Assembly (NCBI GenBank): GCA_030704615.1
Contig: CM060731.1
Location: 13,392,001 to 13,456,000, forward strand
Source of the DNA: Takakia lepidozioides
Lineage: Eukaryota > Plantae > Bryophyta
Length of the DNA: 64,000 bases
Reading direction: 5' to 3'
Part shown: positions 7,901-42,344 of the stretch, piece by piece
How positions within the stretch are numbered: the first letter of the stretch is position 1
How the letters are laid out: each line of letters begins with the position of its first letter
Made by a program: the position numbers and the translations under genes
Notes under the pieces: generated by a model
What the model saw: only the letters and a program-made list of their open reading frames with translations
What the model was told of the DNA's origin: nothing
Database searches by the model: none

Positions 7901-8050
7901 TCAAAAGGATGTGAGGGAGGATCAGAGAGAGTTTTCAACATCTCATTGCATCAACCTGAGGCTTTGGTTCTGATAGAGGAGAGTTTGGCCTTTGCGGGAG
8001 GAGGGCTGGAGGTCAGGGATCTGATCGAGGAGAGTTCTGAGGAAGGAGAG

Positions 8051-13439: not shown

Positions 13440-13989
13440 CCCCCTCTCAATCTTAGCATCTTCTCTAGGGTTTTCTATCAACCCAATTCTTTTTTTTTGT
13501 TGTTGATATGTCATTTGTTGCTGATCTCAGACAGACTGCAAACACCCAACGCTGCTCTAAATTTCTCAAACATTTGCCTTCCTAATGGTTTAGTCATAAT
13601 ATCAGCGATCTGATCTTGTGTGGCTACATGAATCAAATCAACTTCTTCATTTTCTATCTTCTCGCGGATATAGTGATAGTGTACTTCAATATGTTTCGTG
13701 CGAGCATGGAAGACCAGGTTTCGAGCAATCTTTGCACTGCTCTGATTGTCACATTTGATCACAGTTGGTCCATCCTTCAGAATACCCAATTCCTCGTACA
13801 ATCTTCGCAACCAAGTGGTCTCCTTGGCACCTTCAGTGAGTGCGCGGTATTCAGCTTCTGTGGACGACAATGCCACAGTTGGTTGTTTTTTGGAGCTCCA
13901 AGTGATTGCACTTTCTCCAATTCTGAAGACATATCCTGAAGTGGAGTGTCGATTATCACTCTCACCCGCCTAGTCTGCGTCTGTGTGAC

Positions 13990-16900: not shown

Positions 16901-17209
16901 GAAGTGCAATAGGTGTCGTGACATGTCACTTGCGCAGTGGTGCACGTGTTCCTCTAAAGCCTCTCCATGTAGGCAACGCTCATCAGACAATGTAGTCATA
17001 TAGTTAGTCGAGTTGTAACTACATCACTCTCTTATGCATGACTCTAGGTGCCACGCACGCAGTCACGGCTATGATTTGCAAAATGCAGTCCTAAAGACTA
17101 GTCGCTATGACATGGCTTTTTTCACTATAGAGTGATGTAGTCATGAACGCATATAGGACTGAAAAAATAGTCATATGTGCAGTCATAAAAACGCTCATCT
17201 GTTGTAGTG
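13990..17209. mobile_element. Non-autonomous CACTA element with unidentified cargo
   Basis: TIRs CACTACAAGAGATGAGTGTTTTTAGGACT / CACTACAACAGATGAGCGTTTTTATGACT; TSD GAC; removal rejoins the Copia frame LLNG|HTDAD. Confidence 0.94.
14845..16344. repeat. About 230-bp diverged direct repeat (14845-15075 and 16112-16344)
   Basis: Both copies run ggcatggatagctgaaggagcag...ttccctcttatc. Confidence 0.9.
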
Positions 17210-20200: not shown

Positions 20201-21028
20201 CTAGGACCATCCATCTTCCGAAACTTAACATAGAGAGCTTCAGTTTCCTTTTGATGACACCCCCTCAACTCTCTTCGAGTTTCCTCGTGAAAGAGTTTGG
20301 CGGTGACCTCTTCCAAGGTCGGAAAATCTCTTTGGCTCAATACAGCTTGAACGTAATGCTCGTAGCTCTCTGGCAGGGCATTGAGCACCATTTCCATCAT
20401 CATTTTCTCGTCCATCTTGTCTCCAAATCCTGCAAGTTGATTCACAAGATCAGATATTGTTTCAATGAAAACTTCCATAGGCGTACCTTCCTCCATGCGG
20501 AGGTTAACAGGCAATTGCATAGCATCAGCTTTCTAGAAGTGGCCTTGACCTCATAAAGCTCACAAAGCTTTACATACATCTTCCTAGGACAGGTGATATC
20601 TTGTATGTAAGGAATGACCTTATCAGAGAGAGACATGCAAATGATAGAAGGGCTCTATTCTTTCTCTTGTTGTGAGCTTCTCGTTGTCCCTTTGGAGGTG
20701 ACACATCTGTGTCTAAGAATGGAAGTAGTTCTTCTCTAAGCATCATGGTTCTCAGTTTGAACTTCCAGATGTTCTAGTTCTGCTGTCCAACGAGTTTATT
20801 GGACTCCGAGAGATTGATGTGCTGGACTGTATCTAGTGGCATCGACATCTTGAGCGATGATGTTAGTACTGGAAACAACGATTAGTGAGAAGAAGAAATA
20901 AGAATTGACTCTTCCTGGTCAATGAGACGAAGCCTACAATAGACTACATATCTGAGACGGAGCAGAAGGATCTACGTCTGAAGTCTTCTACAGTGACTTC
21001 CTACACTTCGATTCCCACAGCTGCCTTG

Positions 21029-21041
21029 AGCTCTGATACCA
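21029..21041 (-). promoter_or_regulatory. Primer-binding site complementary to tRNA-iMet
   Basis: TGGTATCAGAGCT on the minus strand immediately inside the 5' LTR. Confidence 0.9.
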
Positions 21042-21274
21042 TGTTAAAACATCCTGAATGCTTTACTAAGCATGAACACTACAGCCGGAATACAAAGCCC
21101 TTAGGAGGTAGCCTATTTATCTGAAGGAGTGCATTAACTAGTAATAAACAGTGGTGGGTGGGGAAAGCCTAGAAACCTGGATGACCAACTGACTAACACT
21201 AAATTGAACCAAATACTATAGGGGAGGCCACCTCACGAGTGGGCCCATGCTGAGAGAGTCACTAATTTCTAACA
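21042..21274 (-). repeat. 5' LTR of Copia element
   Basis: Near-identical to 13194-13439. Confidence 0.95.
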
Positions 21275-21299
21275 CTTTGCACCTTATTTACACGCAGAT

Positions 21300-21782: not shown

Positions 21783-22145
21783 CACTAGAAGAAAAACGCG
21801 GAATAACCACTCTGTTAATCACTCATTTTGAGTGGTAAAAGACACTAAACCACTTTGGCCTTAGAGTGATGAAGAACCAGTGCATTAGGACAAGTGAGTG
21901 GTAAAAGACATTACGTGGCACCGGTGGTTAAGAACAGTGGTTCGAACCACTCACGTCCGGGTCCACCTGTTAGCTGACGTGTCACAGTGGTAAATTAACC
22001 ACTGTGACATGTCAATGATGTCAGTTTGAATGGAATATTGCCTCATTCCAGGAGTTTTGGGGTGCATTTCATTACACTGCAAAAAAAAGTCTGATACAGC
22101 AAAATGCAATTGAAAATATCCATATGGAGGATTCCCTTTGCCCCA

Positions 22146-25100
22146 TCAATGATTTCTGGAATTCCTAAGGAAGAGTTTGTGCAGCTCGTTCATGCTCAAC
22201 GCCGGTGCATGAATAAAGTCATCAATAGTCACGTTCATCCTCAACCTCTTCAGGTAAATGTAATACAGATGCTTGCACGGATAATACTTCGAACCCTTCT
22301 TTGCTTCCATCAACGAGAAGTCCGTACAATTGCAAGTCGGCTCCACTCCAATCGTAATTGTGTATACATCGTCGCGTACAGCCGAGCCGGCCGTTGCCAT
22401 CCGATACACACGCCTAAGGCCGGGTGGGGGTACGTCCACGGAGCTCTGAATAGTGCAAGTCATCCCAAGAGCATTGGCAATCCGAGTCTCATTCAACTTG
22501 TTGGGAGGGTGTCGTCTTTTCACTCTTTCGAATCGCATTGTGGGATGTGCAGAATTGTCCAGTCCGTCTCTACTGGACCAAGCAGTCTGCAATGGCTGGG
22601 TCTGAGGAACCGGAAATGCGTGGGCCGGGATGTCTGTGCGTTGCACCATTCGAAATCCTGCTGCAGATAGAGCATCCGCCTCATTCTGAGAGAGGCTGCA
22701 ACCCGGTGCAACAGGCCAGACGCCCGGAGGCTCCGGCATTCCCTGAATCCCGTACTTGGGCTTGCCAAATACACAGGTCATTATGTCGTGCCTACAGAAC
22801 CAAAATGTCAGCGTTGTGGCGTGAGCAAATGTGGGAGTCAAAAATCTGCCGCTGAAACAAAGTGCAGGTACAGCACCATGTGGGTTCCTCCGAATCATCT
22901 CACCACAGCGTGCTCTTGTATCCAGCCGGATGGCGCAACACTTCCCTCGAAATGCCGGCAATGTCCTCGCAATTCTCCACTGTGACTCCGACACTCTTGT
23001 CTCCACAATGGGAATGTTGTACTGCTTTACTACAGATGGCTCGTTATGTTGCCGGGGCACGCGCCCTGTGCTCAAAGGAGATGGCGATCTTGAACGTGCA
23101 GGACTTGCGGTGCTCGATGAGACCTCCTCGGGCAACATCACCGGACCACGAGGGAGCGTGCGAATATTCTTGTCAGCTCGCCATGAATCATCTTCTCCGC
23201 CAGGTGCCTCGTCAAGTCTTCGTCTCACTGGACGGGTATGAACATCTTCTTCCAAATGTTGGCCTCTTCGCAACAATGGCGTGTCCCGAAGGCCCTCTCG
23301 CAAGGCCGCCGCCCTTTTCCGAGGATTCTTCGATCTAGAGGCAGTCCGCATCAGCATTTCCTGCCTGCCCGGCCCCAAGCCCCACTGTTTCCCTTTCAAG
23401 AACTCGTTGTACCTGCTTTGCTGCATAATTGATCTCACAATGTCCTCCGTTGTGGCAGTGAGGATGTCCACCAGATGCGCCGCAGAGGAGGCACGCCAGG
23501 AAGAGTGCACTGATTCGGCCATGTTTGTCGTGGGCATGTCGGTGTCGGAGTCGAGACACATTTCCTGCACAAGCACATGTTGAGGTTACAAGCAAGTTAC
23601 AAATATGGCCAAGAATAATATTCAACGGGACGCGAATTCGTGCAACTCACCTCCCGCATATAGTCGCCGAACTGGAGGAAACGATAATGCCACCATGCTA
23701 GCCAACTGACCATTGCTCCCTCGTCTGATTTCCTTACAGCATCTGACGATGTCCACCAAGCCCGTATACATGTAAACTGTGTCTCTGCATCATTCAAGGT
23801 GGGAGCGCGCTTCCACGCAAGGTACATGGAACGGTGCTCCTCTCTGAAATCTGGCGCCACGAGCCTGGTTGTGTACTGCGAAAGGCTCTGCAGAAAATGG
23901 AACCCACAAGATCTCTCCTTGCCTTCCATGGGAACATTGGGGTCTTCCCCGTACACCCTTCGGATGGCAGCCCAATTTGCTTGTGCGTTGTCCGCCATGA
24001 AACCACGGAAATTGGGAGGGGGCAATCCCGCCTTAGCCATCTGTTCATTTATTCCCTGCCAAAGAAGCATCTCCGATTGTGTGTCCTCTCCTTTCATCTC
24101 ACAAATAACAATTGTCATTAGCATCCTGCAGTGGGTGTCGTAGACATGAGCACCCATTGTCACCCACTAGTGATTTGTAATTCGTTTGATATGGTCGAAC
24201 ATGACCCAACTGTTTGACAAGTCCCCACTCGTCATCCTGTGGACCAGTTCGACGCCGCTGCCAGGTCCACACGTGGACATTTTGAATACGAAACAACGAT
24301 CTGCCTCAGTCCCTTGTCCTGGAAACCGACTTCCATGAATGTAGTCATATCCACATCGTCGCTTCACCTCCAGAATGGAGTGCATATCCGAGCCACGCCC
24401 AATTTTCTGTTTGCATGACACAATGTGGTTTCGGACATTCGGTGAACAGACGTGGGACACCGACTCCAGCAATGCCTCCATTTCCTTGTCATCGAGAGGA
24501 ACTCTGTCAGAACCGTCTTCCGACATAATTCTGGCCAACGCCATCTTATGGGCGGCTTGGAGCTGTATCTGTTTGGGTTTGGCACCCGGTCTCAACTTAA
24601 CCTCCTCCTGAACTAGCTGCTCTGCCTCGTGGGCAGCCTCCCGCGAGTTCCCCCTCGCCAATTTGTGACAATGGGATCCAACGTGTATGCAAGCTCGGGT
24701 GAGGTCAGGGAAACGGTGCAACACATAGAACTGCTTGGCATTACAAACAGACATGCAATGTGGTGGTTCTTTGCAATGCGCACACTTAAATGTGGAGTTC
24801 GGAACCTTCTCCTGAGCTCGAATTGGTTGATGAGTTGTGCCTGTCCAATCGGTCTCGTTCCTGTGACCTCTGGATTTAAAGTGGAAGCAAGTTGGGGAGA
24901 AACACCGCAACACGCCCGCACAAACAACGTAGTGCACCCGCACACCATCGAGCATCTTCATGCTGGTGGTTTTGGTAACGCACCAAGGATGACCGTCATG
25001 TTTTCTATCCATATCTGTCAACATTCCGGATGCCCTCGAGTAGTCCGCCCGAGGAGGGAACTCAAAGAAGATATTACCGTCGACGTCGGCGGGAAGGCAT

Positions 25101-25743
25101 GTAACCGATTTAATTGCGAACTTGCTGTAGTCCAGCCCGGCCAGCTCCGACCGGTGTCCCTCCAGGTGAAGCCCTCGCAGAATTTCAAGAATAGATCAAA
25201 CTGCGGTGCTCGTGCTGGGAATATGACTCCCTCCTCCATTGAGGACTTGCCTGATCTCCAGGACGACCTCGGAACTTCCATGACCTCGTCTGAGTCGGAC
25301 AGGTTGTGAACAACCCGGTTCTCGCTCGTCTTCATGGATGGGTTCGGCTCTAGATTTACTTCGTTGCGGACTTCTCTCTTTGAGGTAGCCACTCTCTGAT
25401 TCGCGGATTGTTTCGTGGAAGGCGCCAGGATAGAAGGTGCATTTGGCGGGCAAATGAAGTCCCCAACAGCCCTGTATATGACGTTGTCCGATGGTGGAAC
25501 TCGCCATTCCCTGCCATCGCCGAAATCATCGTGGAGCACAACAATACTCTCGACAACAAGGCCGTTTGAGTCCTTCCATTCCTCCTCCAAAAAAACCGAC
25601 CCCGGTTTTAGGTGGTATCGAACGCACAGATATTTCTCCATCACCCGGCAGATGTCCCCTCTGCACGGAAATGAAGCTCTATGCTCGTGAGGAGGGCAGT
25701 ACACTGTAGCGCTCGGGTTTTCCGCCATGGGAGATGTGCACAC
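22146..25743 (-). pseudogene. Mutator-like DDE transposase with N-terminal GCM/WRKY-like zinc domain and C-terminal SWIM finger
   Basis: LPADVDGN..DGHPW..CAGVLRC..C..CAHC..HVGSHCH; WVMFD, FMADNAQA, CGFH (CxxH), TTNMAESVH; SWIM CNCTDF..PCKH; GT-AG intron 23650-23565; stop at 24167 and a frame change near 25200. Confidence 0.78.
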
Positions 25744-25965
25744 AAGACTGCCAGGATGGCGTGCGGGGAAGCTCCCTGGTAGAAGGGGGATGCAGCGATG
25801 GGAAGGAATGTGGTGCCAATTTGTCCGAGCGACGAAGCCTGATCCAAATCCAGGGAGCCAACTATCTCAAAAATCCACAGTCAGTGTTAATGAACCTTGT
25901 CTCCGGAATGCGGCACCTGGTCTTTGCGCAATAACTGCCAACGGTATGCAGTCAGAAAGTGGGGG

Positions 25966-27062
25966 GCCGTCCGGATGATGTCGGCTGAAGGGGAGAAGCC
26001 GGCACCGTGCCGTCACATTACTACCCCCGAATGGAAATTCGGCACCCAATATCCAACAGGGGCCGCACGGATGAAGTCGTCCGGGGCAGACATGCCGGCA
26101 CCTGTCCGACAAAGAACATCCCCCGGATGGAAATTCAGTGCCGAATTTCCATTCGGATCCCCCCAAAGGAAGTCCTGTCGGGGGGTCAGGCCGAAAACTG
26201 GCCGACATAAAAACCTCCTCGGATGGAAAAACGGCGCCGAATTTCCATCCGAGGCCTTTCGGATGCAGTCGGCTCGGGGGAAAGGCCGCCATCTAGCCCT
26301 CACATTACAACCCCCGGACGGAAATTCGGCACCGAATATACAACAGGGGAAGCCCGGATGAAGTCGCCTCGGGCGTAGAGGCCGGTGCGTGTGCGACAGA
26401 GAACATCCCCTGGATGGAGATTCAGCGCCGAATTTCCATCCGGGCCCCCCCAAAGGAAGTCATGTCGGGGGGTCAGGCCGAAAACTGGCCGGCATAAAAA
26501 CATCCCTAGATGGAAAAACGGCGCCGAATTTCCATCCGGGGCGGTTCGGATGCAGTCAGGGAGGGGGGAGAGGCCGGCACCTGGCCGTCACATTTCAACC
26601 CCCGGACGGAAATTCGGCACCGAATGTCCAACAAGGGACGCCCGGATGAAGTCGCCTCGGGCGTAGAGGCCGGCACGTGTTCGTCAGAGAGCATCCCCTG
26701 GATGGAGATTCGGCGCCGAATTTCCATCCGGGCCCCCCCAAAGGAAGTCGTGTTGGGGGGTCAGGCCGAAAACTGGCCGACATAAAAACCTCCCCAGATG
26801 GAAAAACGGCGCCAAATTTCCATCCGGGGCCGTTCCAATGCAGTCGGGGAGGGGGGAGAGGCCGGCACCTGGCCGTCATATTTCAACCCCGGGACGGAAT
26901 TTCGGCACCGAATATCCAACAGAGCGGCAGAGAGGCCAGCACCTCTCCGATAGAGACCATCCCCCGGATGGAAATTCGGCGCCGAATTTCCATCGGGGCC
27001 CCCTCAAAAGAAGTCGTAAAAACCTCCCAGAATGGAAAAACGGCGCCGAATTTCCGTCCGAG
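25966..27062. repeat. Tandem array, about 288-bp unit, three GGCGCC-centred palindromes per unit
   Basis: Units start near 25971, 26259, 26546, 26834; consensus core GGATGGAAATTCGGCGCCGAATTTCCATCC. Confidence 0.92.
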
Positions 27063-27169
27063 GCTGTTCCGATTTGCCTCTAGCAGTCAAGGATTCCAAG
27101 AAAAACGTGTCTACAAGTGCACTTCAGCCACAAAACAATTGTTTTTCTCCGAAAAATCAATCGGACACG

Positions 27170-27860
27170 GTCAGAATTACCTGCAAGAAGGTAATTCAGC
27201 GCTTCGAAATACCTGGCGAATGGAAATTCGGCGCCGAATATCCATACGCCAGCAATCCGACTTACCTGCTGGATGGAAATTCGGCGCCGGATTTCTATCC
27301 ATCCGGGATTCGAATTACCTGCAGGATGGAAATTCGGCGCCGGATTTCCATCCATCCGCTCTCCGACCAACCTTGCGGATGGAAATCCGGCACCGGATTT
27401 CCATCCATCCGCCTCCGAATTACCTGCGTGAGGGAAATTTCGCGCGCCGCCCTACCTGCGCGGATGGAAATCCGGCGCCGGATTTCCATCCACCCGCCTC
27501 CGAATTACCTGCGTGAGGGAAATTTCGCGCGCCGCCCTACTTGCGCGGATGGAAATCCGGCGCCGGATTTCCATCCATCCGCCTCCGAATTACCTGCGTG
27601 AGGGAAATTTCGCGCGCCGCCCTACCTGCGCGGATGGAAATCCGGCGCCGGATTTCCATCCATCCGCTTCTGAATTACCTGCGTGAGGGAAATTTCGCAC
27701 GCCGCCCTACCTTGCAGGATGGAAATCCGGCGCTGAATTTCCATCCTGCTGCGCTCCGAATTACCTGCAGGATGGAAATCCGGCGCCGGATTTCCATCCT
27801 ACAGCGCTCCGAATTACCTCTACGTTGGAAATTCCGGGCCGAGTTCCGTCGTTTTTCATC
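27170..27860. repeat. Tandem array (about 57- and 85-bp units) of the palindrome GGATGGAAATCCGGCGCCGGATTTCCATCC
   Basis: Perfect 30-bp palindromes (e.g. 27462, 27547, 27632) separated by repeated gaattacctgcgtgagggaaatttcgcgcgcc linkers. Confidence 0.92.
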
Positions 27861-28010
27861 CGACATGGAGGGCTTCATCCGACATTTAATTGCGCAATTG
27901 GGCAATAAATGTCCACCGCCGTCCGTTTTCTTTCGGGCTGGCGACACATGGCTTCCTGGATACGTACCCTAAATCTGATGCTAATCTTGGCTTAACATGC
28001 TATTCGAGGC

Positions 28011-28611
28011 ATGTACCCCAAAAACGGAGATCTTTTTCCATTTTGGCTGGGACTTATGCCGCCTGAAGGGCGTGGCTCTCCTGAGAGAGACCTCACATCC
28101 AAACCGCGGCAGAAGTTGAAAGCTCTGTACTACGGACGACGGCCAATCTCTCGCATGGCCAAACTGAAGCTCCAGCAGGAGATTCCAGTGTCTTGCTCAC
28201 AACCCGCGCCAACTGAAGCCGAGTACTCTCAGGCAAGCCACTTCTGCTTTCACTTTGTTCGATTTCGCTTTTGCTTTTGCTTTCGCTTTGTTGCCTCGCT
28301 TTGTTTTTGCATCTTCATCCTGGCTTCGCTGGATGAATGAACCTTAGATAGTTGAGTGCGTGTGCAAATCCGGCAGCTCTGGAGAAGGCTGCTTGTGCAT
28401 GTCATTCTCAGGCAATGGTTGCATTTGTTTTCATTGTTGTTGCATGGCTCTCCATACTTCCTAAACTTGTTATGTTTTCATTTTTGTTACACGATTGTTG
28501 CCATGGTGGTTGCGATGCTGGTTTTGGCACCGATGTTGGTTCTCACGATTTTGGGAATGACAGAGTGACGACGAGCCCGACACGCTGGTGGTATCATCGA
28601 CTGCTGCAACG
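28011..28611 (+). pseudogene. Candidate 5' exons of the ParB-methyltransferase gene
   Basis: ATG 28011 just downstream of the arrays; possible GC-AG introns; last piece SDDEPDTLVVSSTAAT joins in frame to PQTPMSAH if 28612-32698 is flipped. Confidence 0.4.
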
Positions 28612-31600
28612 CTCACAGCCGTGAAGAATTCCATCATGGCTTCAAAACCAGGGGTGTCTTTAGGCTCTGTACCGCCAGCCCTCTTCTTGGCTTTCCCCTT
28701 CTGCTCCGCCAGAGACTTGCTGTGTGCCACCTTCTTCGCCGTGGCAGCGAGAGCGTCAAGGAAGCTCTCATTGACGCATTGGATGATGGTTGGAGGTTCT
28801 AGCTTTGGCCTGTGCGTAAACGTCACCGCCGAATACCGCCGTGTAGGCTCGCCCTCAAATGCCAACTTCTTGGCAGAGCCAGTCCCGCTCCGAACTGACT
28901 TGGGAACCCGGACGACCGGTGACTGGGTAGGAGCAACAGCAGTCGCAGGACCTTGAACAAAGTCGTCGTCCGAGTCACTCTCTTGGGTCCCCTCCTGCGC
29001 CTCCTCCGATGCCCCGATGGTTTTCTTCTTTTTGGGTGTTACTGCACTCACATGTTTCCTTGTCCTTTTCCTTTGGCCTTTACTCTTCTCATGCAATTTC
29101 TCCTGAATTCGTGCCTGAGCAAGCTCTGCCGCTTTCCTAGAGTTTGCAAGCGCTTTTCCCTCTTTTGCACCCAACGGAGGCAGCGGAGCCCGGTTTCGTC
29201 GGAATTCAGCATCCAGCTTCAATTGAAACTCGGATGGGTCGAGCGAGCCGGGCGGAAGGTCCACATACCAAGGGCAATCACGCAAATGTTCCAGATGCCA
29301 CTCCTTCACAATATCGTCAGTGTACATGGAGTCAGCCCCAAGGTTCCTCCATGCCAGGAAGAATGGTGGCTCGAAAGACAAATGACCTTTCTCCAAAAAG
29401 GAGAACTTGCAGTACCTGCATTCATGAAAAACACAATGAGGTCCGTGAAATGCATATTCGGCACCATTTTCCCAGGTTGGGGCGGATGTGAGTGGGCCTA
29501 GAAATGGAAAAATGGCGCCGAATTTCGGTTTTCGGTGACTGCCACCCTAGGGACTTAGCCATCTTGGGAGCCCTGAACTGGAAATTCGGCGCCATTTTTC
29601 CCGGTTTGGCCCGAAGATGGCTAAGTCCCAGAACCGCAATAGGGCCTAGAACTGGAAAAATGGCGCCGAATTTCCAGTTCAGGGCTAGCCACCCTAGGGA
29701 CTTAGCCCGAAAATGGCTACGTCCCTGAACGGCAATAGGGCCTAGAACTGGAAAATGGCGCCGAATTTCCACTTCAGGGCCAGCCACCCTAGGGACTTAG
29801 CCCGAAAATGGCTAAGTCCTTGAACGGCAATAGGGCCTGGAACTGGAAAATGGCGCCGAATTTCCAGTTCCGGGCCAGCCAGTCTAGGGACTTAGCCCGA
29901 AAATGGCTAAGTCCCTGGATGGCAATAGGGCCTAGAACTGGAAAATGGCGCCGAATTTCCAGTTCCGGGCCAACCAGTCTAGGGACTTAGCCCGAAAATG
30001 GCTAAGTCCCTGAACGGCAATAGGGCCTAGAACTGGAAAATGGCGCCGAATTTCCAGTTCAGGGCCAGCCAGTCTAGGGACTTAGCCATTTTCGGAGCCC
30101 TGACTGGAAATTCGGCGCCATTTTCCCTAACACCACATGAGGCCTCTAACATCCTGAAATGCAAGGACTTGAAAGAAAGGCAGCGCGTATGTACCTGTAC
30201 AGAAGGCGCATTGCAGCTTTGTCCGCGTTCGGCTGGTCGGTGAACTCGTGGCTCCATCTGCTATCCCGAAAGAATAGGTTGGTTTTGTAGAGCAGAAAGT
30301 ACCTTGTCACATAGTCGCGTAGACTCTCTGCTGCAGGAGACATCTCCATCTTGAACTGATGTGCTTGTGTGTCCAGCTGCTCTTGCGCATTCGTCGTCAC
30401 CTGTGGAGATTCTCCATCAGATCGCTTTCCTGAAAAAATACAATGAATCCACCCCCTACTAGAGTAGAAGCCCCAAACGAAGCGTGGGGAAGTACCTGAA
30501 ACCACCATGTCATGCGGTTCATCCACATGTCGAATGTGGGGTCAGAGAGTTTGTCCGGTTTGGGGAAGCTCCACATGTCCCTGGTACTTTGGGAACCATT
30601 CCAGATTTGGAGTCACCGGGTCTGTCCAACCACCCAACATATTCGTAAGCGCCAAACACCACAAAAAGGAGTTGTTGCCACCACAATTTGGTTAAGAATG
30701 TATCACCTTTTCTGTTGCATCCACACAGGATATGGCTAGACGATGGAGCTTCTCCAATGTCATTGTGGGCTTCAGAGCGCGAGAGTAGTGCTTCCCCACC
30801 TCCACCAGAAAGTCGGCACCAAGGGCGGGATCAGCTATGGCCACGTACTTTACCATCCGCGACTTGTACTTTATGCGGGCCCTCACCTCCGCAGCTTTGA
30901 CATACGATTCGAGTGCCGGGAGGGTTGGATTCTTCTCCTCTGACTCTATGTAGAACCTCCGCGCATGTGCCAAATCATGCTGTATTTTTCGTCTGTCAAG
31001 AATGCGCACATAAGATTAGAGATCCTGCTCAACACAATTTCTTCTATTGGGGGAGGAGAGACAGATTAGCTCAACAAAACTGTCAGGAGCTTTACCCGAA
31101 ATATGTAGTCCACCATGGCATCGACGCTCAGCCTATACCAGGTTCTGTCTGCCTTTGCCTCCGACTTGCGCAGGAGGTCGGCACTGAGGGAATTGGCAAA
31201 CTCTTGCACCCCCTGCTTCCCGACATCCTTCACTCGGAAGAGCATATGGGACAAGTTGGTGGCAATGAAGGCATTCTCAGTCACCCTGCAGTGCCACATT
31301 TCCATCAAACAATACTGAAATGGGAATTTTCATCATATATGAGGATTCGCAATGAAATGACTTCCAAATTCAAAGTCCAAAAGCGAGAGGCGTTGTAACT
31401 TACGAGTTGATGTCCGCCATTGCAGCTTTGAGAAGACTGCGATCTTTGGGCCCCGCAACCTTCAGCACAACACACTCCACGGCGAAATGCCAATCGAGGT
31501 CGTTGGGGTGGGCTTGGGCAATGTGCTCCATCCATGCCAGGAGGCGATGATTGCCGTCCCACACGTAGAACATCTTACCGGACAAGTGCTGGAAAAGAGG

Positions 31601-32698
31601 ATCACTAGCAATCGATCTCTCAAACTCCTCATTTCGCGTTTGCCAATGGGGACCCCATTTGTCCACCTCATCGGAAGTGTGGGCACGGGAAGCTCCGTGG
31701 TCGTTCTCAATGGAAACGTAAAACACGGCAGACCCCATTCGATATCCATCCCGGAAAGAGAATTTCAGCTTGTCGATATCGCCTGGGAGGGCAGGTCTCA
31801 CCACCTGCAATGACACCAAGCGGCAAAGGGGAATTCGAAGCTTGGCCGGGTACACCATGCCCCCCAGCACCCTGCCAATGTTGCTGTGGGTTGCCTCCAA
31901 CATCTTGGCAGCGGCCAACTTCATATCCGCCTCTGACATGACGTCTGCTGCAGAGGGGTTTTCCGGCAGCCCACCAGGACCGCCAAATCCAGCCTGTATG
32001 CTCCAGGTTTGGGGCCTGGGGATGTCCGGGAGGATGTCATCTTGGTCAGAAAGCTCCTTGTCGTCCTCCTCAACAGGGTCAGCCACCTGCGAAACCACCT
32101 CCAGCACTCTCCCCGTCTCTACTGCCCTCTCCCTGGCTTCACCTCGAACTTGCACAATCCGTGCTCTTTCTGGTGTTCTTTCCTCTCCTCCACTCTCCAC
32201 CGTATGGGTAATTGCAGGGGCTGCTCTTGCCCACGATGGTCTAACCGGTGTGTTGCTGCCTCTTTGTGGTGTCTTGGAGGGATCCACCGTCTCTGTGTGT
32301 CCCTCACTTACATGGGAATCTGTCAGTTCGGAACCCCTGGCCTCTTCAATGGCCTTTTCTCTTTCCTCCTGGCTAGCCTTGTGTCTTGCCTGTTCTTTTG
32401 CCCTCTCTTTGGCCCTCTCACGGGCTTTCTGTTTCTTATTAGGGCTAGCAGCAGGGGAGCCCGGATGGACAACCACCTTTGAGGTAGGCGAACTGACACC
32501 CTTGCACGCACTGCGAACTCCCCCCTCCGCAGCCCGTGACGGCTCTCGCGCCGGGGATTGCACGTGCTTGGCTTTCTTCTTCTTCTTTGCTTGGACGGGC
32601 CCTACTGCTTCTGCATCAACAACCTCCATTGCCGGATCTGCTGTTCTCACTTCCTCACGCCCCTTCTTTGTTGGATGTGCAGACATTGGTGTTTGAGG
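28612..32698 (-). pseudogene. Spliced gene segment encoding a ParB/Sulfiredoxin-like domain protein
   Basis: IPLCRL..VRP..FYVWDGNHRLLAW (ParB/Srx DGxHR motif); GT-AG introns starting at 31403 and spanning 30194-29416 splice in frame (INS|VTENAF, LLYR|YCKFSFLEKG); at least one apparent stop in the middle exons. Confidence 0.78.
29495..30125. repeat. Intronic tandem array, about 95-bp unit with two hairpins
   Basis: gaactggaaaatggcgccgaatttccagttc plus agggacttagcc-cgaaaat-ggctaagtccct repeated 5-6 times. Confidence 0.92.
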
Positions 32699-33819
32699 CA
32701 TATTGCTTTGTGAAGAGAGGGTCTACGTTCAAATTCCGCAACGACGGTCGTCTTGTTGATGCCACTGTGGACCCTGTAACCTACGATGTCCTCTACAACT
32801 ATGTGCCCCACTCCAGTATGCCGAAGAACACAAAGACAGGCAAACCGTGGCGGTACAGCCGGACGCGGAGCCCTGCTTTCATCCAAACCCTCATGGAGAC
32901 GTGCTCGGATGTCCAAGGGCGGATTCTGGACCTCACATGCGGCACGGGTAAGCCTTCATGTGCTCAGTTTGTCCCCTGGCCCGATTGCAATTGCATGCCG
33001 CAAGCTATTAACCGCCCGCTTTGTTCCTCAGGTGCTTCAATGTGGGCAGGGACGTTGTCCGACAGGCATGTGTTCGCCTTCGAGCCAGATACTGCCCTCC
33101 ACAACTCGGAACTTGCAGCGGCTGAACGTCTGCCGAAAGAGGAAGAGGCATCCTCGGAGGATGAGGAAAAATCCGAGAAGGTTCAGGGGGAGGAAGTTGG
33201 GATCGAGGCCGAGGAGCCCCCGGTTTACGAGTGAGTGGTCGCATTGTAAGTTGCTTCCAGATTTCGTGAGGCACCTCCCTCCGCTCGCTTATTTCATTGA
33301 AAACCCTTTCTGGTTGTGCTGGTATTGACATTCTTGAAGTGGATTTGTTCTTACTGTAGGATGTCAAGTACTGCCGGAGGGACGTCTACACCGGAGTTCA
33401 TGGGCAGGAGGAACGTGCCTTTTTTTGCCAGGGGGAATTTCATGCCTAGTCCAGAAAAGGAGTACATCCTTCCTACTTATGCTGCCCGACTTGCTTCGGT
33501 GTCCATTAGGAGGTGTTCCGAACCTAGTCGTGTACAGCAGATTTTACACGAGGCAAGCCTCAAGAAAATGAAGATGAGGGAGGAGGCAGCAGCTATTAGA
33601 GCCCGTCGGGCTCGTAGATTTGTCTTGGATTCTGCTGAGGAAAGTGGGGGAGAAGACGTAGAAGATTCCCAGGAGGTGAGGTGGACAGTCCCCCAAGGAG
33701 AGGACGGGATTTTTGAGAGGCATAGTGGAACTGATGCATCACAGAGCTCGGAGGATGAGGGGGATGAGGGGGATGAGGAAGAAGGTGGGGCAAGTTCCTC
33801 GGAGGGTGTAGGAGAGTAG
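32699..33819 (+). pseudogene. C-terminal half of a beta-class N4/N6 DNA methyltransferase-like protein with acidic tail
   Basis: After removing intron 32948-33031 it reads RSPAFIQTLMETCSDVQGRILDLTCGTGASMWAGTLSDRHVFAFEPD (motif X-I-II pattern); intron 33231-33359 joins in frame to the acidic exon ending at 33819; no start codon or catalytic motif IV seen. Confidence 0.68.
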
Positions 33820-34574
33820 TGCCCATTCCGGCTATGACAGTTAGAACACACTTGTATAGACGTGGCTTGCCACAAAATTTGCAATAAAATGTTGCATTTC
33901 AAGTCCACTGGTGCCACATTCCAACTTCACATGACCCTATTTCCGTGCCTCCTAACCCTATTTCCGTGGACTCACAATGGTCTGCTCATGCTTTTTTTTT
34001 TCCGCTCATGCTCATGCCGCTCATGAATAGCAGCCCCCGTTTGTAGGCAACCACTCATGAGCAACCACTAGAATAGTGGTTCCAATTACTGCAGTATCTT
34101 TCACCACCCACTCTCCACCACTATCAAAGTGGTACAAATCAATGAGGTGTCTTTAACCACTCAAGATCAACGTGCAGCACTGTCCCCATCCACGTGGAAT
34201 ATTATATTTATGAATTAATACATATTTCCAAATCATAAATCACAAATAAAATTTGAATTATTACACGTGGAGTAGCAAGTGGTTTCAACCACTTCCCATC
34301 ACTGAGGTGTCTATAACCACTCACAATATACCACTGCACTCGTCCACGTGGAATATTTTATTAATTAATAAAATGTATTACCAAATAAATAAATAAACAA
34401 TTTATTACACGTGGACTACTGAGTGGTTGAAACCACTTCCAACCACTGTCTGTGATGCCACCGTGGCATTTCATTGGGATTAACCATTGGCAAGTGGTTA
34501 CTAGTGGTTTATAGAGTGGAAAAAAATAGTAGTGGTTAAAGGGCCAGTGGTTATTCCACGTTTTTCTTCTAGTG

Positions 34575-34949
34575 GTTAGACTGCACATTCCCAACTCCTC
34601 TATAAATTTCTCGAACTTGAGTCGCCCCAGTGGTTTGGTAAATATATCTACAACTTGTTCATTGGTGGGGACATGAACCAAATTGATATGTTTGTTTTCA
34701 ACCTTTTATCATATGAAGTGATGGTGTACCTCGATATGCTTAGTCCTAACATGGAAAACAAGGTCCTTTGCTAGTATAGAACTGCTTTGATCATCACAGA
34801 GCAGGATTGTTGGGCCTTCTTTCAGAATTCCGAGTTCATCAGCAAGTCTTCTGAGCCTAGTTGTCTCCTTAGCAGCTTCTGTAAGGGCTCGGTATTCTGC
34901 CTCAATAGAAGACAGATCGAGCTAAGGTCGACTACTTTTTCAAGCACCA
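34575..34949 (-). pseudogene. Copia RNase H remnant
   Basis: TKHIEVHHHFI, VHVPTNEQVVDIFTKPLGR with stops. Confidence 0.85.
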
Positions 34950-36950
34950 TGTTGAAGAACTGGTTGTGAAACTACAGCTTGAGGACAGTATGGCTAGAAA
35001 TAAAGAATCAGAAGGAGAGAGCACTGTTTATCTAATAAAAAAAAGAGGCCTAATTGAATGCATTAACTGCTGACTATCTACCAACCGAAGAGACTAACCT
35101 TCCTATCAAGACGGTGGCGGTGACGGTGGCGAGAACGGTGGAATAACTATCTACATTCAGCTGATTTCATGCTACACTAAATTCAGTAAATGACTGAGAA
35201 CCGACTAAGTAAACAATAACTAGCTGGTTGCACTAGAGATTCAACATCCCCCCCCAGTCCTCAGACAGCTTGCTTTCAAGATGTCGAAGACCAGACATTC
35301 CAAGACTCTCTCTCTAAACTTCTCCAATTTTATCTGTCCCAACGCCTTTGTGAAAATATCAGCAACTTGTTCGCAAGTTGGCACATGAATCAGATCAATC
35401 TCCTTGCTTTCAACCTTCTTGCGTATGAAGTGGTGGTGCACTTCAATATGTTTAGTCCTTGCATGGGTTTTTGGCAATTTTGGCGCTACTATGGTTATTG
35501 CATAGGAGAGCGGTCGATCCTTCTCCCAAGATTCCGATTTCTTCCAAGAGTCTCCTCAGCCAAGTTGCCTCCTTGGCAGCTTCAGTAAGAGCCCGGTATT
35601 CTGCCTCCATAGATGACAGTGCCACCGTAGATTGTTTCTTGGAGCACCAGGTTATGGCGTTGTTTCCAATGAGAAAGACATATCCACTAGTGGAATGGCG
35701 TTGGTTGTGGTCATTGGCCCAGTCAGCATCCGCATAGCCATTCAATTCATTGCTTGAGCCTTTGCGGTACAACATGTTGTCGAGCGGCTTTTACTCACCC
35801 ATCCCTTCGCTATCCGAGGTGGGAACTCCAAGATAGAAGAGTTGGAAATCTCTAAGCACTCAGCCCGCTTAGAACAATCAGTCATGACCTACAGCTAGTG
35901 TATCATGGGGGTGCTTCCTATTTGTATTCCTTCTGGCATTCATGTTAGCAAGTTACCTTACTGTCTATGATTAAGTATCAGATTGCTTCTGCAATCTACC
36001 ATGTTCTATCTATTCAAACATTCATTCCACAACTTCACTCAGGTCTTTCTACACAGTGTGAGTATGAAATATGTGTCAGATTAATATCTATCAAGTACCA
36101 GGCCGATGGTGTCTCTAATATGCTCTACAGTGCATCTCTACAACTTGCATGAATCAAGCATCATCTTGTCGTATCTCCTCCTCTGTGTAATCTCCATCTT
36201 TGTGCTCCAAGATCGTGCTCTCTGCCTGATCTCCTCAAGTGATGTCCCCAAACTGATCTCCCTCAGTGACGTCCAAGAAGTGCTCCAAGAAGTGACCCCC
36301 TCCATGTTGCCACTTTGCCTATTCTATCTGCAAGCTGTTCTAACCCCCTAACTAACTAACTGTCATTCAAGACAAAATGCACGTTCCCTCTGCAAATGTC
36401 ATTCCCACACAGTCGTTCCCTACCAATGATAACCGTTCCCTGTGAACTCTGTGACGAGCTGTACAAAGCTGTGTCGGGCAGTGACTGTGCCAAGCTGTAA
36501 CTGGCTATGTCGGGCTGTGTAAGATTGTGTCAACAAGCTGTGTGAGGCTTTGTGAGGCTGTGTCGGGCTATGATAGGCTGTGACTGACTGTGATAGGCTG
36601 TGATAGGCTATGTAAAGTTGTGTAAGGCTGTGACAAGCTGTGTCATGCTGTGACAGACTGTGTAAGCCTGTGACTGACTGTGTGAGCCTGCCTACTACCC
36701 CTAAGGCCTATGTCTGTCACCCCTAAGGCCTCTGTTGGTCTGAGTCTACCATCCGTAAGTCTGCGCAAAATTAAGGGTACCCCACAGAACCCGTAAAACT
36801 CTTAAGTCCCAGACAGCCCTCTAACACATGTCGTAGTCCAGAGTTCCCCGAATGTATCTGAAAAAATGCTTCACCGCCTCCAGATGAGGTTCCTGAGGCT
36901 CTGACATAAATCTGCTCACCGTGCTAACTGAGAAGACCAAATCAGGTGCA
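34950..36950 (-). mobile_element. 5'-truncated Copia (RT end, RNase H, PPT, 3' LTR 34950-35246)
   Basis: PDLVFSVSTVSRFM, GYADADWAND, SSMEAEY, ADIFTKAL; G-run PPT before the LTR tgttgaa...ttcaaca. Confidence 0.85.
35778..36826. mobile_element. Solo LTR inserted in Copia pol
   Basis: TG...CA ends, TSD CATGT (35773-35777, 36827-36831); removal rejoins LDYDM|LYRKG; internal ctgtgacagg-like minisatellite at 36450-36690. Confidence 0.88.
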
Positions 36951-37083
36951 TTACAAATCGGCGCCAAATTCTTTGTAGGACGCTCACATGAGCACAAATC
37001 TAGGCTGCTTGCCACCTTTCAAATGCTAGCAATGCTCACATGAGCTCACACAGTGCAAAACCAAATAAGAGAAAAATACTTAC

Positions 37084-37879
37084 TAGTTCATGCGTCTCAT
37101 TGCCGCACGGACAATTGGCAAGTCTTCGTTCTTAACGTCCATGATCTTCGAGTTGACACAAACGTGTCACTCAAAATCAACGGGGTGTTGCTTGTTGATT
37201 ACCTCCATCCATGCCAGCCATCTATGGTTGCCATCGAATATGTACAGCCATTTGTTCGAGAGGAACTCCCATTCCGTTCCTGCAATTTGCTCTTCAAATC
37301 GCGCATCAACAAGTTACCATTGATGGCCCCATTGTGCTTTGTCGGAATCTGTGATGGAGATCTCTCTCCCGGACCCGTCGTTTGTGGCCAAAAGGAAGGA
37401 GGCCAATGCATCGTTGTATCCATCCATTTCAAAGTACACCTTCAACCTGTCTATGCCCGGCCTCTCCGCTTTTCGAACCGCGGGCAGTGGTTTCATTCTC
37501 TTGGTGGTTGGCCCTTCCTTAAGAGTTTGGAGATGGAGGAGTATGTGTGATTCAAGGCACTTGAGGACATCAGCTCGATCGCCTTTCGCCGCCGATCCGT
37601 TGTGATCACAACATCCGTGGCTGCAGGGTCTGTCGAGACCTCAGGCTGGTCATCGATTCCACCGGGCTCTCCTTGACTTCCACCGTGCGAGCTTCCAGCT
37701 CCAGGGGAAGGAAGAGCATTGACGCTCATGGGACTTGCGTTCCCAGACCGTGGAGGAGTAATGGCGCCTCTATCGAGCCCGAGTGATTCACTGCCAGCCC
37801 CTCCTCCACTACGACCTTGCGTCCACGGATGACCGCCCTCTTCCTTGGCTACTTCCTTGAGATGTCGTGACTCTGCCAC
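37084..37879 (-). pseudogene. Second, diverged ParB/Srx-like gene fragment
   Basis: DKAQWGHQW*LVDARFEEQIAGTEWEFLSNKWLYIFDGNHRWLAWMEVINKQHPVDFE*HVCV..AAMRRMN|gtaag aligns with 31404-31850, including the intron position. Confidence 0.85.
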
Positions 37880-40800
37880 TGCGAAGAAACCGCCCTACAG
37901 CTTCTGAGACCTGTGCATTAGGATCTATTTCTTCGGAATGATCATGCGAATGCAGCGATTGCTCCATCCTCTCCGAAGTTGTGTAAGGGCAAATGCTGAC
38001 CAGGATAAATGAATGGAACTTTGGAACAGAGTAGCGTTCGGGGGCCTCCACAGGAAGTGCAGGTTGTGACGAGGACGATGCAAGGGGGAAGAAGTAAGGT
38101 AGGTTGTGAAGGCACCTCCTCTCTATCTCGAGGCGGTGTGAGGGGGAAGAGTAGCCTCCAATGGGTCCCTACTTGGCGCCGACGCGGCATTCTGCATCAC
38201 GTTTGCAGTCAAATTTGAAATGCCATTCTGATGAAGGCAAGTGTCGACAAGCCATTATTTCAACGAATGCAAATTGGGGGGAATGTACCTTCCAAGGGGT
38301 ACAAAGCGCGGTGCGACGCAACTTTCCGCATCGCCATCCTAATTCAAATTCCAAAACCAAATACGATCGCGGCAAGTGCCGAACGGCAGTAGGTCCAACG
38401 CAATGGAGCCCTCTGCCCTCTCAGCTCACGTGAGACAAAAATACTTACATCCCCAACACGATTTTTCTTCATGCACCAATGAGAAATTGCGAATGTTTTC
38501 ATCCGCAATGACATCGACATCCTTGACGCTGTCCGAGAGTTTCGCGTTCTTACGACCGCTTTCAGTGCACTCCAAAATCCAACCCCCCCTGCCTACACTT
38601 TGAGAAGGGGAGTGAAACCAGACCATGTCCCCGTCATCCTTCTCCAGCAGAGAACTACCGAACCGGGTTTAGGGTGCGAAACATGTGAAGGCCTGAATAA
38701 TTCAAATCGGCACCGATTTCCATGGAAGGAAAGTATTGTGTCCCTAGCAGGCAAACTTCCCTACCTCAACCGTGTTAGAATCAGCGCTGATTATGTGCGT
38801 CCAGCGAGTTGATTAATTCTTATTGTTGCCAGTTTAGGGTGTCGGACAGTGTTTAAAGGGGAGTCCTCCCACATTTCATTGGTGCTGGTGCATAGAATCG
38901 GCGCCGATTACATGGTTGCAGTGACAACATTCTTTGCAATTGGTCAAGACTTGCATCTGCAACACTGTTAAACGAATGCTCAATTCCACTGCTCGCCTTG
39001 AGAAAAAACGTGTCAGCAAACATACTTCGTATGCATGATCTGGCATCAACAAATTTTTGGTTTCCCCCTAGCTGTGTGTAATGGGACTTGAAGCTCGTAC
39101 ATTCGGCGTCGATTTGCTTTAGCGACAGTCTTCATACAAAAATCTGACCAAATGGAAGATTTTTCTTACATATAATCGTCGCCGATTATATGTTAATGCA
39201 GGCAACAATCGTCGTGCAGGTTATCGCATGCCGGCCACATGGAACGACTAAATCGGCGCCGACTACACAATGCGTTCCTTGCTTGTACTGCGTAGTGCGC
39301 AATCGCAGAGGGGATGGAGGATGTAATATGAGACTAAACTGTACTCCCACCACAATCACTCAGATTTCATTGATCTTATGGGAACAATTATTCGAATTGA
39401 GAAAATCAAATTGTACCCCGGGATTGCATCGCTCTTAAATATCTTCAATGTGGCACATGTCCAGTGGAGATGAGGAAGTGTTTGTTGTAACTTGTTGTTT
39501 TCACAAAATCGAGGTAAAAAACAATCCATCCCAAATCCACCCCCAAACAAAATGACGAGTTCTCCATTGTCAGAATCAAGGTTAAAATTGGACATAAATG
39601 AGGGCCCAATGGGTATATTTATTCATCCACATGAATTACATAAGAAGCACTTCTACTGCGCTGTTGGTACATGGGAATGGTCAGCCTTATGCCTTGTGGA
39701 GTTAAGTCATGAAGGAGTAGGAACTTCCACTGCTTTGAAGACGAGGTCATGAGTCATGGGGCTCCTTCAGGTAAACTTGATAAAGGCCGTTCTCACGCCT
39801 CTGTTCAAGTGGACGACAATGTCCTGCCCTTCAATCGAACCACCATGGAATATGGAAAGCTTCACTGTTGGCGGGCTGTTTCCGTGATCCATGTGAATAC
39901 GAATATCCCCATTCACAGGATAAGATGTGCGGACTTGTTCAGGAGTGTACGTCACAGAGATGGAGTCCTCCCAGGTCCACTGGCAGCAGTTCTAGCGCCA
40001 AAGCATGGCCGTGCGTAATCTCTCCTCCTGCCGGTCTCTTTAAGGGGAAATATCTAAGTCAAGGACGTGCAGGAGCCACGGATTCGGTAGACCGCCACTG
40101 TCGCCCCGCTCGAAAGCGTAGTAGCCTGGCAGATACTCTAAAGCTGTCAATGATTCCCCCCGCTCCCCTAAATCGTGATTGGAAACTATCATCCAGATAA
40201 CGATGTCCCCCGCTGACGGCGTAAACCTTTCAAAGTCGACGCCTCCATAAGGGCAGTCCTCACCGTCCCGGAAACACGACATCCTTGCAAAGTACAGAAC
40301 AAAGTCTCTGCATGAAGAGTTAGTCGAAGTTGAGGAGCCACTGTATCGTGGATGAGAATGACGTTGCACATGTCAACGGAGAAGACAGTTCAATCCTGGA
40401 GTGATGAGAAGCGGATGAGGACGGGTGCTCCAATAATGGAGGCACTGCAACATGGGTGCCACGTGTCCGTGTTGGGTGATACGTGACCGTCTTACATCCC
40501 TCAACTGTTTCATCTTGCTCCCGCTTGATGAAAACACACGGCCGATTTTCCGCCGGCTTTCCAAGGTGGACAATATTTTCCTCTAGTTTTGCGACAAATC
40601 ATATTTGGGCACATCCTGTTCTCGCCCTGGCTCCCTTGAAATCGGCGCCGATTTGCCTCAGAGACAGTGTGGTAACGTACTGTAGAGTTCCTTCAGGCAT
40701 ACTACAAATGTTAATCGAAATAGAATTCGGCGCCGATTTACTTCAGGGGCACTCATGAAATAGTAGAACTACAATTGCAATGGAGCCAGTTTGTGCAAGT

Positions 40801-40959
40801 GACAGTGTTCAGCTCTAAAGCGGAGTTCCTTCGGAGGGGTTGAAAATGTTAATCCTATATAATTCGGCGCCGATTTACTTCATGGGCCCTACTGCAAGAT
40901 TAACTCTGAAATTGAAATGGTATGCTGAATATAATCGGCGAGTCTGCGGAATATACACC

Positions 40960-41385
40960 TTCCAGGGATACAAAAGGGAGAAAGCTCTTCTTAAATGTCT
41001 GGCCCAATGTCAGAAGACAATTGAAACAAACTGGGCGGGTCCTCAGACTATGTCTTCTTTTAACTTGGCAAAATGTAACATCGCTGACCTCCTTAGAGTC
41101 AAAGAGGATTCCCTTCGTAGGAAAACAGGCATCAACTGGTCTTTAAAAGGCGAAAAGATGTCGCGTTACTTCAACCTGAAGGCTAAGCAACGTCGAGATG
41201 CCACCACGATCAGCTCCTTCACTGGCCTCGGAGATGAAACATATTCTGACCCAAAATCCATGACCTCTTTTGTAGCCTCTTATTTCTCAGACCTGTTTAG
41301 CAAGCCTGTATCTAACTTGCAGCATTCGATCTCAAAGCAAGCAGTTTTGGATTCATTTCCTTCACTGGTCTCAGCAGAGGAAATG
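40960..41385 (+). mobile_element. L1-type LINE ORF2 fragment (EN-RT linker)
   Basis: INWSLKGEKMSRYF..TISSF..YFSDLFS pattern; boundaries approximate. Confidence 0.65.
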
Positions 41386-41389
41386 ATGA

Positions 41390-41955
41390 ATAAAGGGGGG
41401 GAGTTGGAAAACAGTTGGGTAATGTTCGACAATGTGAAGAGAATCCACGGGTGGAGCACAATGGCTTGCCATGTCTACCATCCGTCCTACCAGGAGCTAA
41501 TGACCATCGCAATCTGCCAAATGAAGTCCAAGGACACACAGTCGCAGGTCCTCATGTGGGACTGCATAAAGGAGCAGATGAAGAGGGCGGGCAAGAGGCC
41601 TCCACATTTTAGGGGCTTCATGGCTAACAATGCGAACGCCAACTGGGCGGCAGTGCGCAATGTCTTCGGAGATGGGTCTCTAATGGAAGGTAGAGAGAGG
41701 TCTTGTGGTTTTCATTGGGGGCAAAGCCTCTCGTCGTACACCAAAAAGTACATTCAAGAGGGACTGCAATCCGCTCATCTGTCCCTGGCTGGAGGACGGC
41801 AAAAAGCGAGCAGGAAGCGGAGATGGCCTTCATGATAATAAGATCATGGTGGTCATCCTCGGGTGCTGCCAAACTGGCTGATATTCCCGCGTTGGAGAGC
41901 TGGCTGTCGTGGTGGACATACCGCTACAAACAGTTGGGGTCCTTTGTAAGGGCGG
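41390..41955 (+). pseudogene. Core fragment of a paralogous Mutator-like transposase
   Basis: NSWVMFDNVKRI..FRGFMANNANANW..ERSCGFHW..WLSWWTYR|gtaag aligns with 23651-24215; second Asp is Asn; frameshift near 41780. Confidence 0.88.
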
Positions 41956-42344
41956 TAAGAGTACTTGCAAACATTCATGACCTAGTTATGGACCTTTTGC
42001 TCACATGAGCGGACAAATTTTCTCCTTGACAGATGGTGCATGTAAGGAAGGATCAGTGCCGCATTAGTAAACTTAGACTTTCATTTGCAAGTTTCATTTT
42101 TTTCTAGCCCTTCACGATGAAACGTCCAGATTTTATTTGGCCTTTCTTTTGAAGTGCCCTAAACTTTTTGTCCTTCATATAGAGCATTTTTGCAAGTTGA
42201 AGGACGTTGCAGTCTTAAAAAATAGATAACCCAAACTTCAAAATCTAATGTATTAAAAATACTAATGAAAAAATAGTTACAATTATTAGGGTAGAACATA
42301 GAAGAGTGCTTTTAGGATACTTTTTTTGGATATATATTTTTAAA

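Follow-up and report, generated by a model that had tools for sequence, protein, structure and literature searches.

A rearranged ParB-methylase gene within a CACTA-ended element carrying a Mutator-type transposase in Takakia lepidozioides

The analysed window is a 64,000-nt stretch of Takakia lepidozioides DNA (contig CM060731.1), and its cullin, Tnp2 and LINE reverse transcriptase matches, together with copia-like ORFs, are those of plant-type DNA. Near its middle lies a transposable element in which a Mutator-type transposase gene is followed by palindromic tandem arrays and by the rearranged remains of a gene encoding a ParB-like domain and a methylase (Table 1). The anatomy of this gene, its inversion, the size of the deletion, two spliced introns, the ends of the element, the divergent transposase and the gene order conserved in relatives can be stated with near certainty. 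A copia-like element (13194-21275, with 248-bp LTRs about 91% alike) ends 500 bp to the left, and further copia pieces lie at 34580-35800. An intronless 998-aa ORF at 7673-10666, a possible retrocopy, encodes a full cullin with its Nedd8 domain (PF00888, E 1e-136) and contains short internal duplications.

Table 1. Coordinates of the element and of its parts in the window.
Feature	Position	Strand	Description
Whole element	21783..34574		12,792 bp; 29-bp TIRs starting CACTAG (1 mismatch); 3-bp TSD GTT
Left TIR and subterminal repeats	21783..22005		ACCACT at 25 per kb, against 0.1-0.5 elsewhere
Mutator-type transposase gene	22149..25866	-	FAR1/GCM-like part, DDE core with CxxH, SWIM finger
Tandem arrays	25963..27842		96-, 53- and 85-bp units; palindrome of about 30 bp centred on GGCGCC in each unit; candidate binding sites
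Un-inverted 5' region of accessory locus	27996..28610	+	Possible first exon or separate small gene
Inverted block of ParB-methylase gene	28611..32661	-
Low-complexity N-terminus of the protein	within 28611..32661	-	In inverted block
ParB/Srx-like domain	31846-31406	-	In inverted block
Helical exons	31287-31084, 30961-30707, 30612-30493, ~30235-30195	-	In inverted block
Intron	29419..30194	-	Holds 95-bp x5 array with one-sided GGCGCC palindromes
Exon	29418-28611	-	In inverted block
Right inversion junction	32661..32662		388 nt of intact copies missing from window
Methylase exon	32683..32947	+	Specificity loops, motif X, motif I as far as DLTCGT-G
In-frame intron within motif I	32948..33031	+	84 nt
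Methylase exon	33032..33230	+	Remainder of motif I, motif II (FAFEPD), acidic tail
Predicted intron	33231..33359	+	129 nt
Last exon	33360..33819	+	Acidic low-complexity tail, stop 33817-33819
Right subterminal repeats and TIR	34050..34574		ACCACT at 31 per kb

The methylase piece displays on the plus strand the beta-class motifs first described there, as confirmed by inspection of the sequence. Both DLTCGTG, the SAM-binding motif I, and FEPD, the acidic motif II, are present, and this copy retains motifs X, I and II only. The original prediction had placed an 84-nt in-frame intron inside the SAM glycine loop, and this intron is real: eight placements of 84 nt were tried, only the one at 32948-33031 begins with GT and ends with AG, and a contig of the public set X8 omits exactly those letters when aligned to the window. 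The intron is of phase 1 and splits the last glycine codon of DLTCGTG. The predicted junction, 32947-33032, is accordingly seen as a splice joint, but its two numbers denote the flanking exon bases. X8 is probably RNA, a guess that two spliced joints support, the second connecting 30195 to 29418 (loose contig ends, splice signals present). The intron-skipping contig starts at 32683, directly 3' of an AG, with 299 upstream letters that match neither stretch compared; the exon begins there, after an AG acceptor, and not at 32699 as had been proposed. Because this contig differs from the window by 5-6 letters in each exon, the transcript is attributed to another copy.

Splicing raised the score of the peptide against a profile of relatives from 46 bits for the unspliced ORF to 61 bits, with the next-best ORF of the window at 4.4 bits. 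A Pfam scan of the unspliced ORF and of the single exons gave no PF01555 match, and a database search with the unspliced piece gave no homolog among 396 candidates. The second intron, predicted as GTGAGT..TAG, keeps the frame through to the stop codon, with X8 contigs ending at 33237 and restarting at 33376 and X8 depth nil at 33287. The position of the motif I intron is shared with the loci L001 (102 nt) and L081 (81 nt) and with the L017 cluster (89 nt), bearing out the long eukaryotic residence that had been proposed; the reading pattern of P0136 also fits this intron, and several Ceratodon-like genomic ORFs cross the site uninterrupted.

Rather than a free-standing host gene, the piece forms the 3' end of a spliced gene whose protein, of about 1,100 aa, has ParB-like and methylase parts. 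A minus-strand ORF head-to-head with it matched Ceratodon M758_1G295400 (P0005, 1,147 aa), in which PF01555 scores 30.4 bits against a cut-off of 26.7. Residues 238-740 of P0005 are colinear with minus-strand exons from 31846 down to 29196, and residues 995-1114 match the plus-strand piece, while nothing in the window matches residues 860-995, the part with motif IV, by tblastn or profile. Among 80 related loci, redundant copies included, the methylase lies on the ParB strand in all 39 where it was detected. The segment 28611-32661 has been inverted in the window copy, and sequence was lost at both joints. A 1,311-nt X6 contig runs from 29046 to 28611 on the minus strand, through 388 unplaced nucleotides, and then from 32661 to 33147 on the plus strand; its depth is 81.1 in both placements, which were assigned to the same record from length, depth and complementary positions. 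The loose letters before 32661 agree between X5 and X6 and those before 28611 between X6 and X7, different loose ends follow 28610 and 32662 in public contigs, and beyond 28610 other copies carry letters absent from the window. A clean inversion without loss was rejected, as the junction sequences of intact copies gave 0 matches each in the window. On the un-inverted side, an X8 contig (28093-28333, loose at both ends) lies on a plus-strand ORF at 27996-28337, which has no match in related loci and may be either the accessory gene's first exon or a further accessory gene.

The missing 388 nt very probably hold motif IV, since their size fits the roughly 112-115 missing residues plus part of an intron, and a deletion of the size of the motif IV exon leaves the window copy dead. 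The term fragment, used in the original prediction, holds in that the piece is partial, but the cause is the rearrangement of one copy, with the other exons inverted alongside and the likely catalytic exon gone. Decay is also visible in single letters: 47 differences from the majority were chosen from 80 listed rows, where the other letter dominated, and 28 of them are C>T or G>A changes. Since 22 of these 28 sit in CG (14) or CHG (8), the window copy is concluded to have been 5mC-methylated by the host, which weighs against the protective reading given below, although this copy is dead. It could be argued that the inversion arose in assembly and that the locus is really intact, an account compatible with the functional readings below, given that none of the contigs listed crosses the window junction 32661/32662. 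This is highly improbable, as sequence has been lost at both junctions and the private lesions of the copy (one additional base near 30985, a gap of about 9 nt near 30254, the transposase stop described below and the CpG decay) are those of a decayed copy.

The assignment to beta-class amino-methyltransferases is supported by the family profile, which matches M1.HpyAVI and CcrM in agreement with other profile searches, and by a model of the P0005 methylase domain (pLDDT 72) with Foldseek E-values of 8e-12 for M1.HpyAVI and 1e-11 for CcrM. The best 27 listed matches of this model are all beta-class DNA methylases and MT-A70 appears from rank 42, so that a non-DNA methyltransferase, or a protein lacking a Rossmann fold, was not what emerged. 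In the P0005 model the family has a permuted Rossmann fold with motif IV ahead of X-I-II, an order and fold shared with M1.HpyAVI, CcrM, M.BceJIV, M.MboIIA, M.RsrI, M.PvuII and the rotifer N4CMT. The family differs from these enzymes in a D-x-P-x instead of D/SPPY motif IV, an identity of only 11-21%, the fusion to ParB-like and helical parts, and introns. In relatives, 6 of 21 match PF01555 under the cut-off, which P0005 passes.

The family is large, with 856 clusters at E <=0.001, chiefly exon-sized pieces. Named relatives come from Ceratodon purpureus and Riccia sorocarpa, and members in mosses and liverworts keep the gene order. None of the 57 proteins returned by the family profile is named as from Marchantia or from bacteria, none of 176 candidates in a viral collection is a relative, and one of 30 candidates from prokaryote genomes matched. 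That one, L081, is likely a plant contig mis-binned in a cyanobacterial genome assembly, because it has introns at the family's positions; at L081:735-4032 it holds a complete intron-bearing member with a GGATCC-centred palindrome array upstream.

Conservation of the methylase motifs is uneven. With the window's own ORF counted as one row for motifs I and II, the motif I aspartate is kept in 59/60 sequences, its last glycine in 52/60, and the motif II glutamate or aspartate in 51/54. Motif IV was counted in 46 proteins, mostly Riccia paralogs, with the motif IV of the Takakia family outside the sample; there the aspartate is kept in 45 and the third-position proline in 42 (D-x-P-x), position 2 is never proline, the canonical DPPY or SPPY occurs in none, and just 6 have an aromatic residue at position 4. 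Beta-class methylases usually have a phenylalanine in the motif I consensus, and this residue is missing in the family. These losses make it possible, though rather unlikely, that the methylase part is a pseudo-enzyme that binds SAM or a flipped base without transfer, the protein shielding its palindromes in the manner of VANC from VANDAL MULEs. In solved enzymes, residue 1 of motif IV and the backbone carbonyl of residue 2 are described as binding the target amino group and residue 4 as stacking the target base, being an aromatic in N4CMT (PMC10406627), so that the side chain lost in 40 of the 46 proteins is the base-stacking one. The described targets of VANC, tandem repeats in non-coding parts of its element (PMC5735166), would also suit a shielding protein. 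Against this stands the retention of the motif IV aspartate, the third proline and the SAM-contact residues across mosses and liverworts, along with one Ceratodon clade that retains DTPF, DQPF or DQPY. The use of the backbone carbonyl of residue 2, reported for CcrM (PMC10406627), further suggests that proline may be dispensable there. Judged from these sequences, transfer of methyl groups by the family's domain despite its non-canonical motif IV is put at slightly less than an even chance. An aspartate instead of serine in motif IV leans to 6mA according to one report (PMC4738411), and exceptions to this target rule are noted in another (PMC8885841); an amino-methyl mark written by the family would more likely be 6mA than 4mC.

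The N-terminal conserved domain was modelled with a pLDDT of 93, and all 8 of its matches at Z >=5 are ParB/Srx-type. The best, KorB (Z 7.5, rmsd 2.5, 89 aligned), lies under the caution line of Z 8, and Foldseek agrees weakly, with E-values of 0.01 or worse. A DGNHR motif (DGxHR-type) is almost invariant in the family, no helix-turn-helix was identified, and a ParB profile search of PDB sequences gave no meaningful match. ParB proteins read a palindromic parS site through a helix-turn-helix and act as CTP-gated clamps. By analogy, the ParB-like part probably recognises the palindromes of the element or loads at them. The core TCGG-NN-CCGA occurs upstream in 6 copies in the element, 6 in a second, decayed member of the window, 6 in L002 and 3 in L081, where GATC is at the centre; elsewhere in the window it is absent from 1-21782 and found twice in 42500-64000. 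At least 3 intact upstream cores were found in 2 of the 34 related loci examined, most of which are decayed. Two further TCGGCGCCGA palindromes lie at 49758 and 49937, with no family gene detected near. A looser core, YCGG-NN-CCGR, was rejected as a family mark, being unspecific: 11 copies occur in an unrelated repeat. This separate repeat element (1331-2328) carries 11 CCGG-NN-CCGG repeats. CpG reaches an observed/expected ratio of 1.12 in the arrays, whereas neighbouring elements have 0.35-0.55; the high value is explained equally well by binding-site selection or by recent array expansion and also fits protection.

The transposase is recognisably of Mutator type, its top atlas matches being all Mutator/IS256 (0.92-0.93). 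No direct Pfam MULE match was found in it, the SWIM finger scores 17.1 bits, under the cut-off of 19.6, and the FAR1/GCM-like part rests on weak recognition. Two lesions break the gene here, an in-frame stop (24167-24169) and a shift of frame near 25021-25195. The stop falls inside a CACTAG hexamer (24167-24172, minus), identical to the first six TIR letters, and at this position the transposase of the second member is two codons shorter; a footprint and chance are both possible. The element has the termini (CACTA/G), the 3-bp TSD and the subterminal repeats of the CACTA class. CACTA ends around a Mutator-type gene are an unusual combination. No Tnp2 (Transposase_21) was found among the element's own ORFs, the Tnp2 of the window belonging to another element; no TnpA-like gene was recognised, and no inner long TIR or 8-10-bp TSD of the Mutator/MULE type was found. 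The idea that an inner MULE, marked by a 9-bp TSD (22063/33893), sits within a CACTA shell was rejected, the repeat being at chance level and family depth continuous across it. With its CACTA-type ends, this copy would have been moved either by a Tnp2 transposase acting in trans or by a Mutator-type enzyme of an unusual kind. The former is plausible, since the TIR has its first 14 nt in common with that of a Tnp2-coding CACTA element (51473-63961). That element contains Tnp2 and DUF4218 genes, a TSD of AGT and a LINE reverse transcriptase inside (59042-61015).

The Takakia element is abundant, with 14,129 X2 contigs on 4 kb. Summed depth, which is not a copy number, is 2-6.6 x 10^5 in 29 of 30 bins; family depth in the bin 34016-34130, at the onset of the subterminal repeats, is lower by a factor of about ten or more. 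Assemblies as small as 2-4 Mb contain 36-43% of the element's words. The second member (36900-42000), also decayed, repeats the divergent order (37086-41830), with a ParB-like exon at 37580-37086 on the minus strand, interrupted by stops, and a Mutator-type DDE piece at 41398-41830 on the plus strand; no CACTA TIR was found around it. Among 46 locus clusters of relatives, 6 (L015, L020, L057, L061, L077, L078) have a Mutator-type gene upstream in divergent orientation, equivalent to 6 of the 16 having at least 4.5 kb of upstream DNA, and in L074 it lies downstream of the accessory gene instead. Tnp2 and DUF4218 adjoin the Mutator-type DDE of the family member at L015:2918-9008, possibly a nested insertion or a composite element. 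Two suggestive CACTA right ends were seen in relatives, in L057 and L077, but the pattern is no commoner than in controls (7 against 10, 4 and 3 in 36 loci) and was discarded as evidence.

The stability of this partnership with the transposase over wide distances could mean that the protein serves transposition, its ParB-like clamp loading at the arrays and pairing or protecting the ends as TnpA does for CACTA elements, with the methylase secondary. The ParB fold and the lack of a recognised TnpA-like gene would accord with this. Such a role is improbable, since the palindromes are internal (between the genes and in one intron) and the ends bear the different ACCACT repeat, and similar genes of algae are carried by Sola, EnSpm, Mutator and Zisupton elements, a spread that speaks against a role tied to one transposase. 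Passive cargo is still less probable. Capture of a functionless gene piece, as in Pack-MULE or Pack-CACTA elements, would explain a broken window copy and CACTA ends round a Mutator-type gene, but distant loci have full-length, colinear genes with introns next to a transposase of the same type, other copies give spliced transcripts, and the family forms hundreds of clusters.

The closest published design is that of Ectocarpus Sola1-1_Ec32, in which a gene for a 1,104-aa protein with ParB-like and N4C/N6A methylase parts lies on the other strand from its transposase (PMC12477816). The authors of that report propose binding and modification of the element's own DNA and cite similar algal proteins. 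The Takakia gene resembles it in size (about 1,100 aa), in joining ParB-like and methylase parts in one protein and in lying opposite the transposase, a comparison of architecture alone, whereas Sola1-1_Ec32 has a Sola transposase and a 4-bp TSD and the Takakia element a Mutator-type transposase, CACTA ends and a 3-bp TSD in a land plant. No algal protein is named among the homologs or family-profile matches. The Plavaka elements of Bostrychia, of the EnSpm/CACTA superfamily, are described with a PF01555 methylase gene and a ParB-like gene (PAG2/PAG3) and inverted-repeat tandem arrays, with palindrome binding proposed for PAG3 and with cassettes that move among transposon families including Mutator (bioRxiv 10.1101/2025.02.11.637652). 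Plavaka keeps a methylase-SET and a ParB-2OG oxygenase protein in separate genes, while the Takakia element has ParB and methylase in one. Arabidopsis VANDAL elements also encode a MULE accessory protein, VANC, aimed at tandem motifs in their own non-coding DNA; VANC induces 5mC loss, and the abstract concerned mentions no ParB or methylase fold for it (PMC5735166). The ParB-methylase transposon design and the anti-silencing hypothesis are already in print for algae. No land-plant account was found in the literature searched, which did not include Iyer et al. 2011, the supplements on Bostrychia or the version of Walker et al. in Cell (2025), all of possible bearing on novelty.

A beta-class fold with introns in a seed-free plant host also brings to mind the hint in the original prediction of a reproductive-tissue 4mC writer, that is, a domesticated host enzyme like Marchantia DN4MT1. 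DN4MT1a/b does share the prokaryotic-type beta-class fold in a bryophyte, but it is described as a pair of host genes with TSPPY, without further domains and with genome-wide sperm 4mC, and these traits set it apart (bioRxiv 10.1101/2021.02.12.428880). Neither the TSPPY motif nor the lack of extra domains, the latter also stated in PMC8885841, is found in the family, which has no SPPY, is high-copy and transposon-borne, and returned no protein named as Marchantia. This possibility is exceedingly slight, and for the window copy it is already contradicted. The original prediction is on the whole partly supported; it overlooked the ParB-fused transposon gene, the inverted neighbouring exons, the probable loss of the catalytic exon and the non-canonical motif IV.

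The preferred reading, by analogy with the systems above and with a probability of roughly 0.5, is that of a transposon accessory protein whose ParB-like part would bind the element's own palindromic arrays and whose beta-class methylase would amino-methylate the element's DNA, allowing escape from host 5mC silencing. Intact copies transcribe and splice the accessory gene, as the probable RNA run shows for two introns. The ParB-like domain, probably together with the helical middle region, would then bind the palindromes, as ParB/parS biology and the PAG3 proposal suggest; the methylase fold may modify neighbouring DNA of the element with an amino-methyl mark or only shield it, and this mark or shield would keep 5mC off the promoters that lie between the divergent genes. 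The effect would be anti-silencing rather than aid to transposition. The boldest version, for an abundant, transcribed, CACTA-ended and Mutator-cored land-plant family with a site-and-methylase system of bacterial style, in which a ParB-like clamp loads at an array of the conserved TCGG-NN-CCGA palindrome and a methylase with a D-x-P-x active site not characterised before writes 6mA or 4mC and so locally blocks 5mC and CpG decay, is speculative and has perhaps one chance in a few.

The window copy itself is dead and of little interest on its own. If the intact protein methylates its own element, land plants would have a prokaryotic-type DNA mark written by a transposon, and 6mA/4mC signals of bryophytes a source that can be tested. 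A pseudo-enzyme would instead represent a second, unrelated VANC-like anti-silencing design. Since Ceratodon and Riccia have annotated full-length members, the hypothesis framed for algae can now be tested in plants amenable to genetics.
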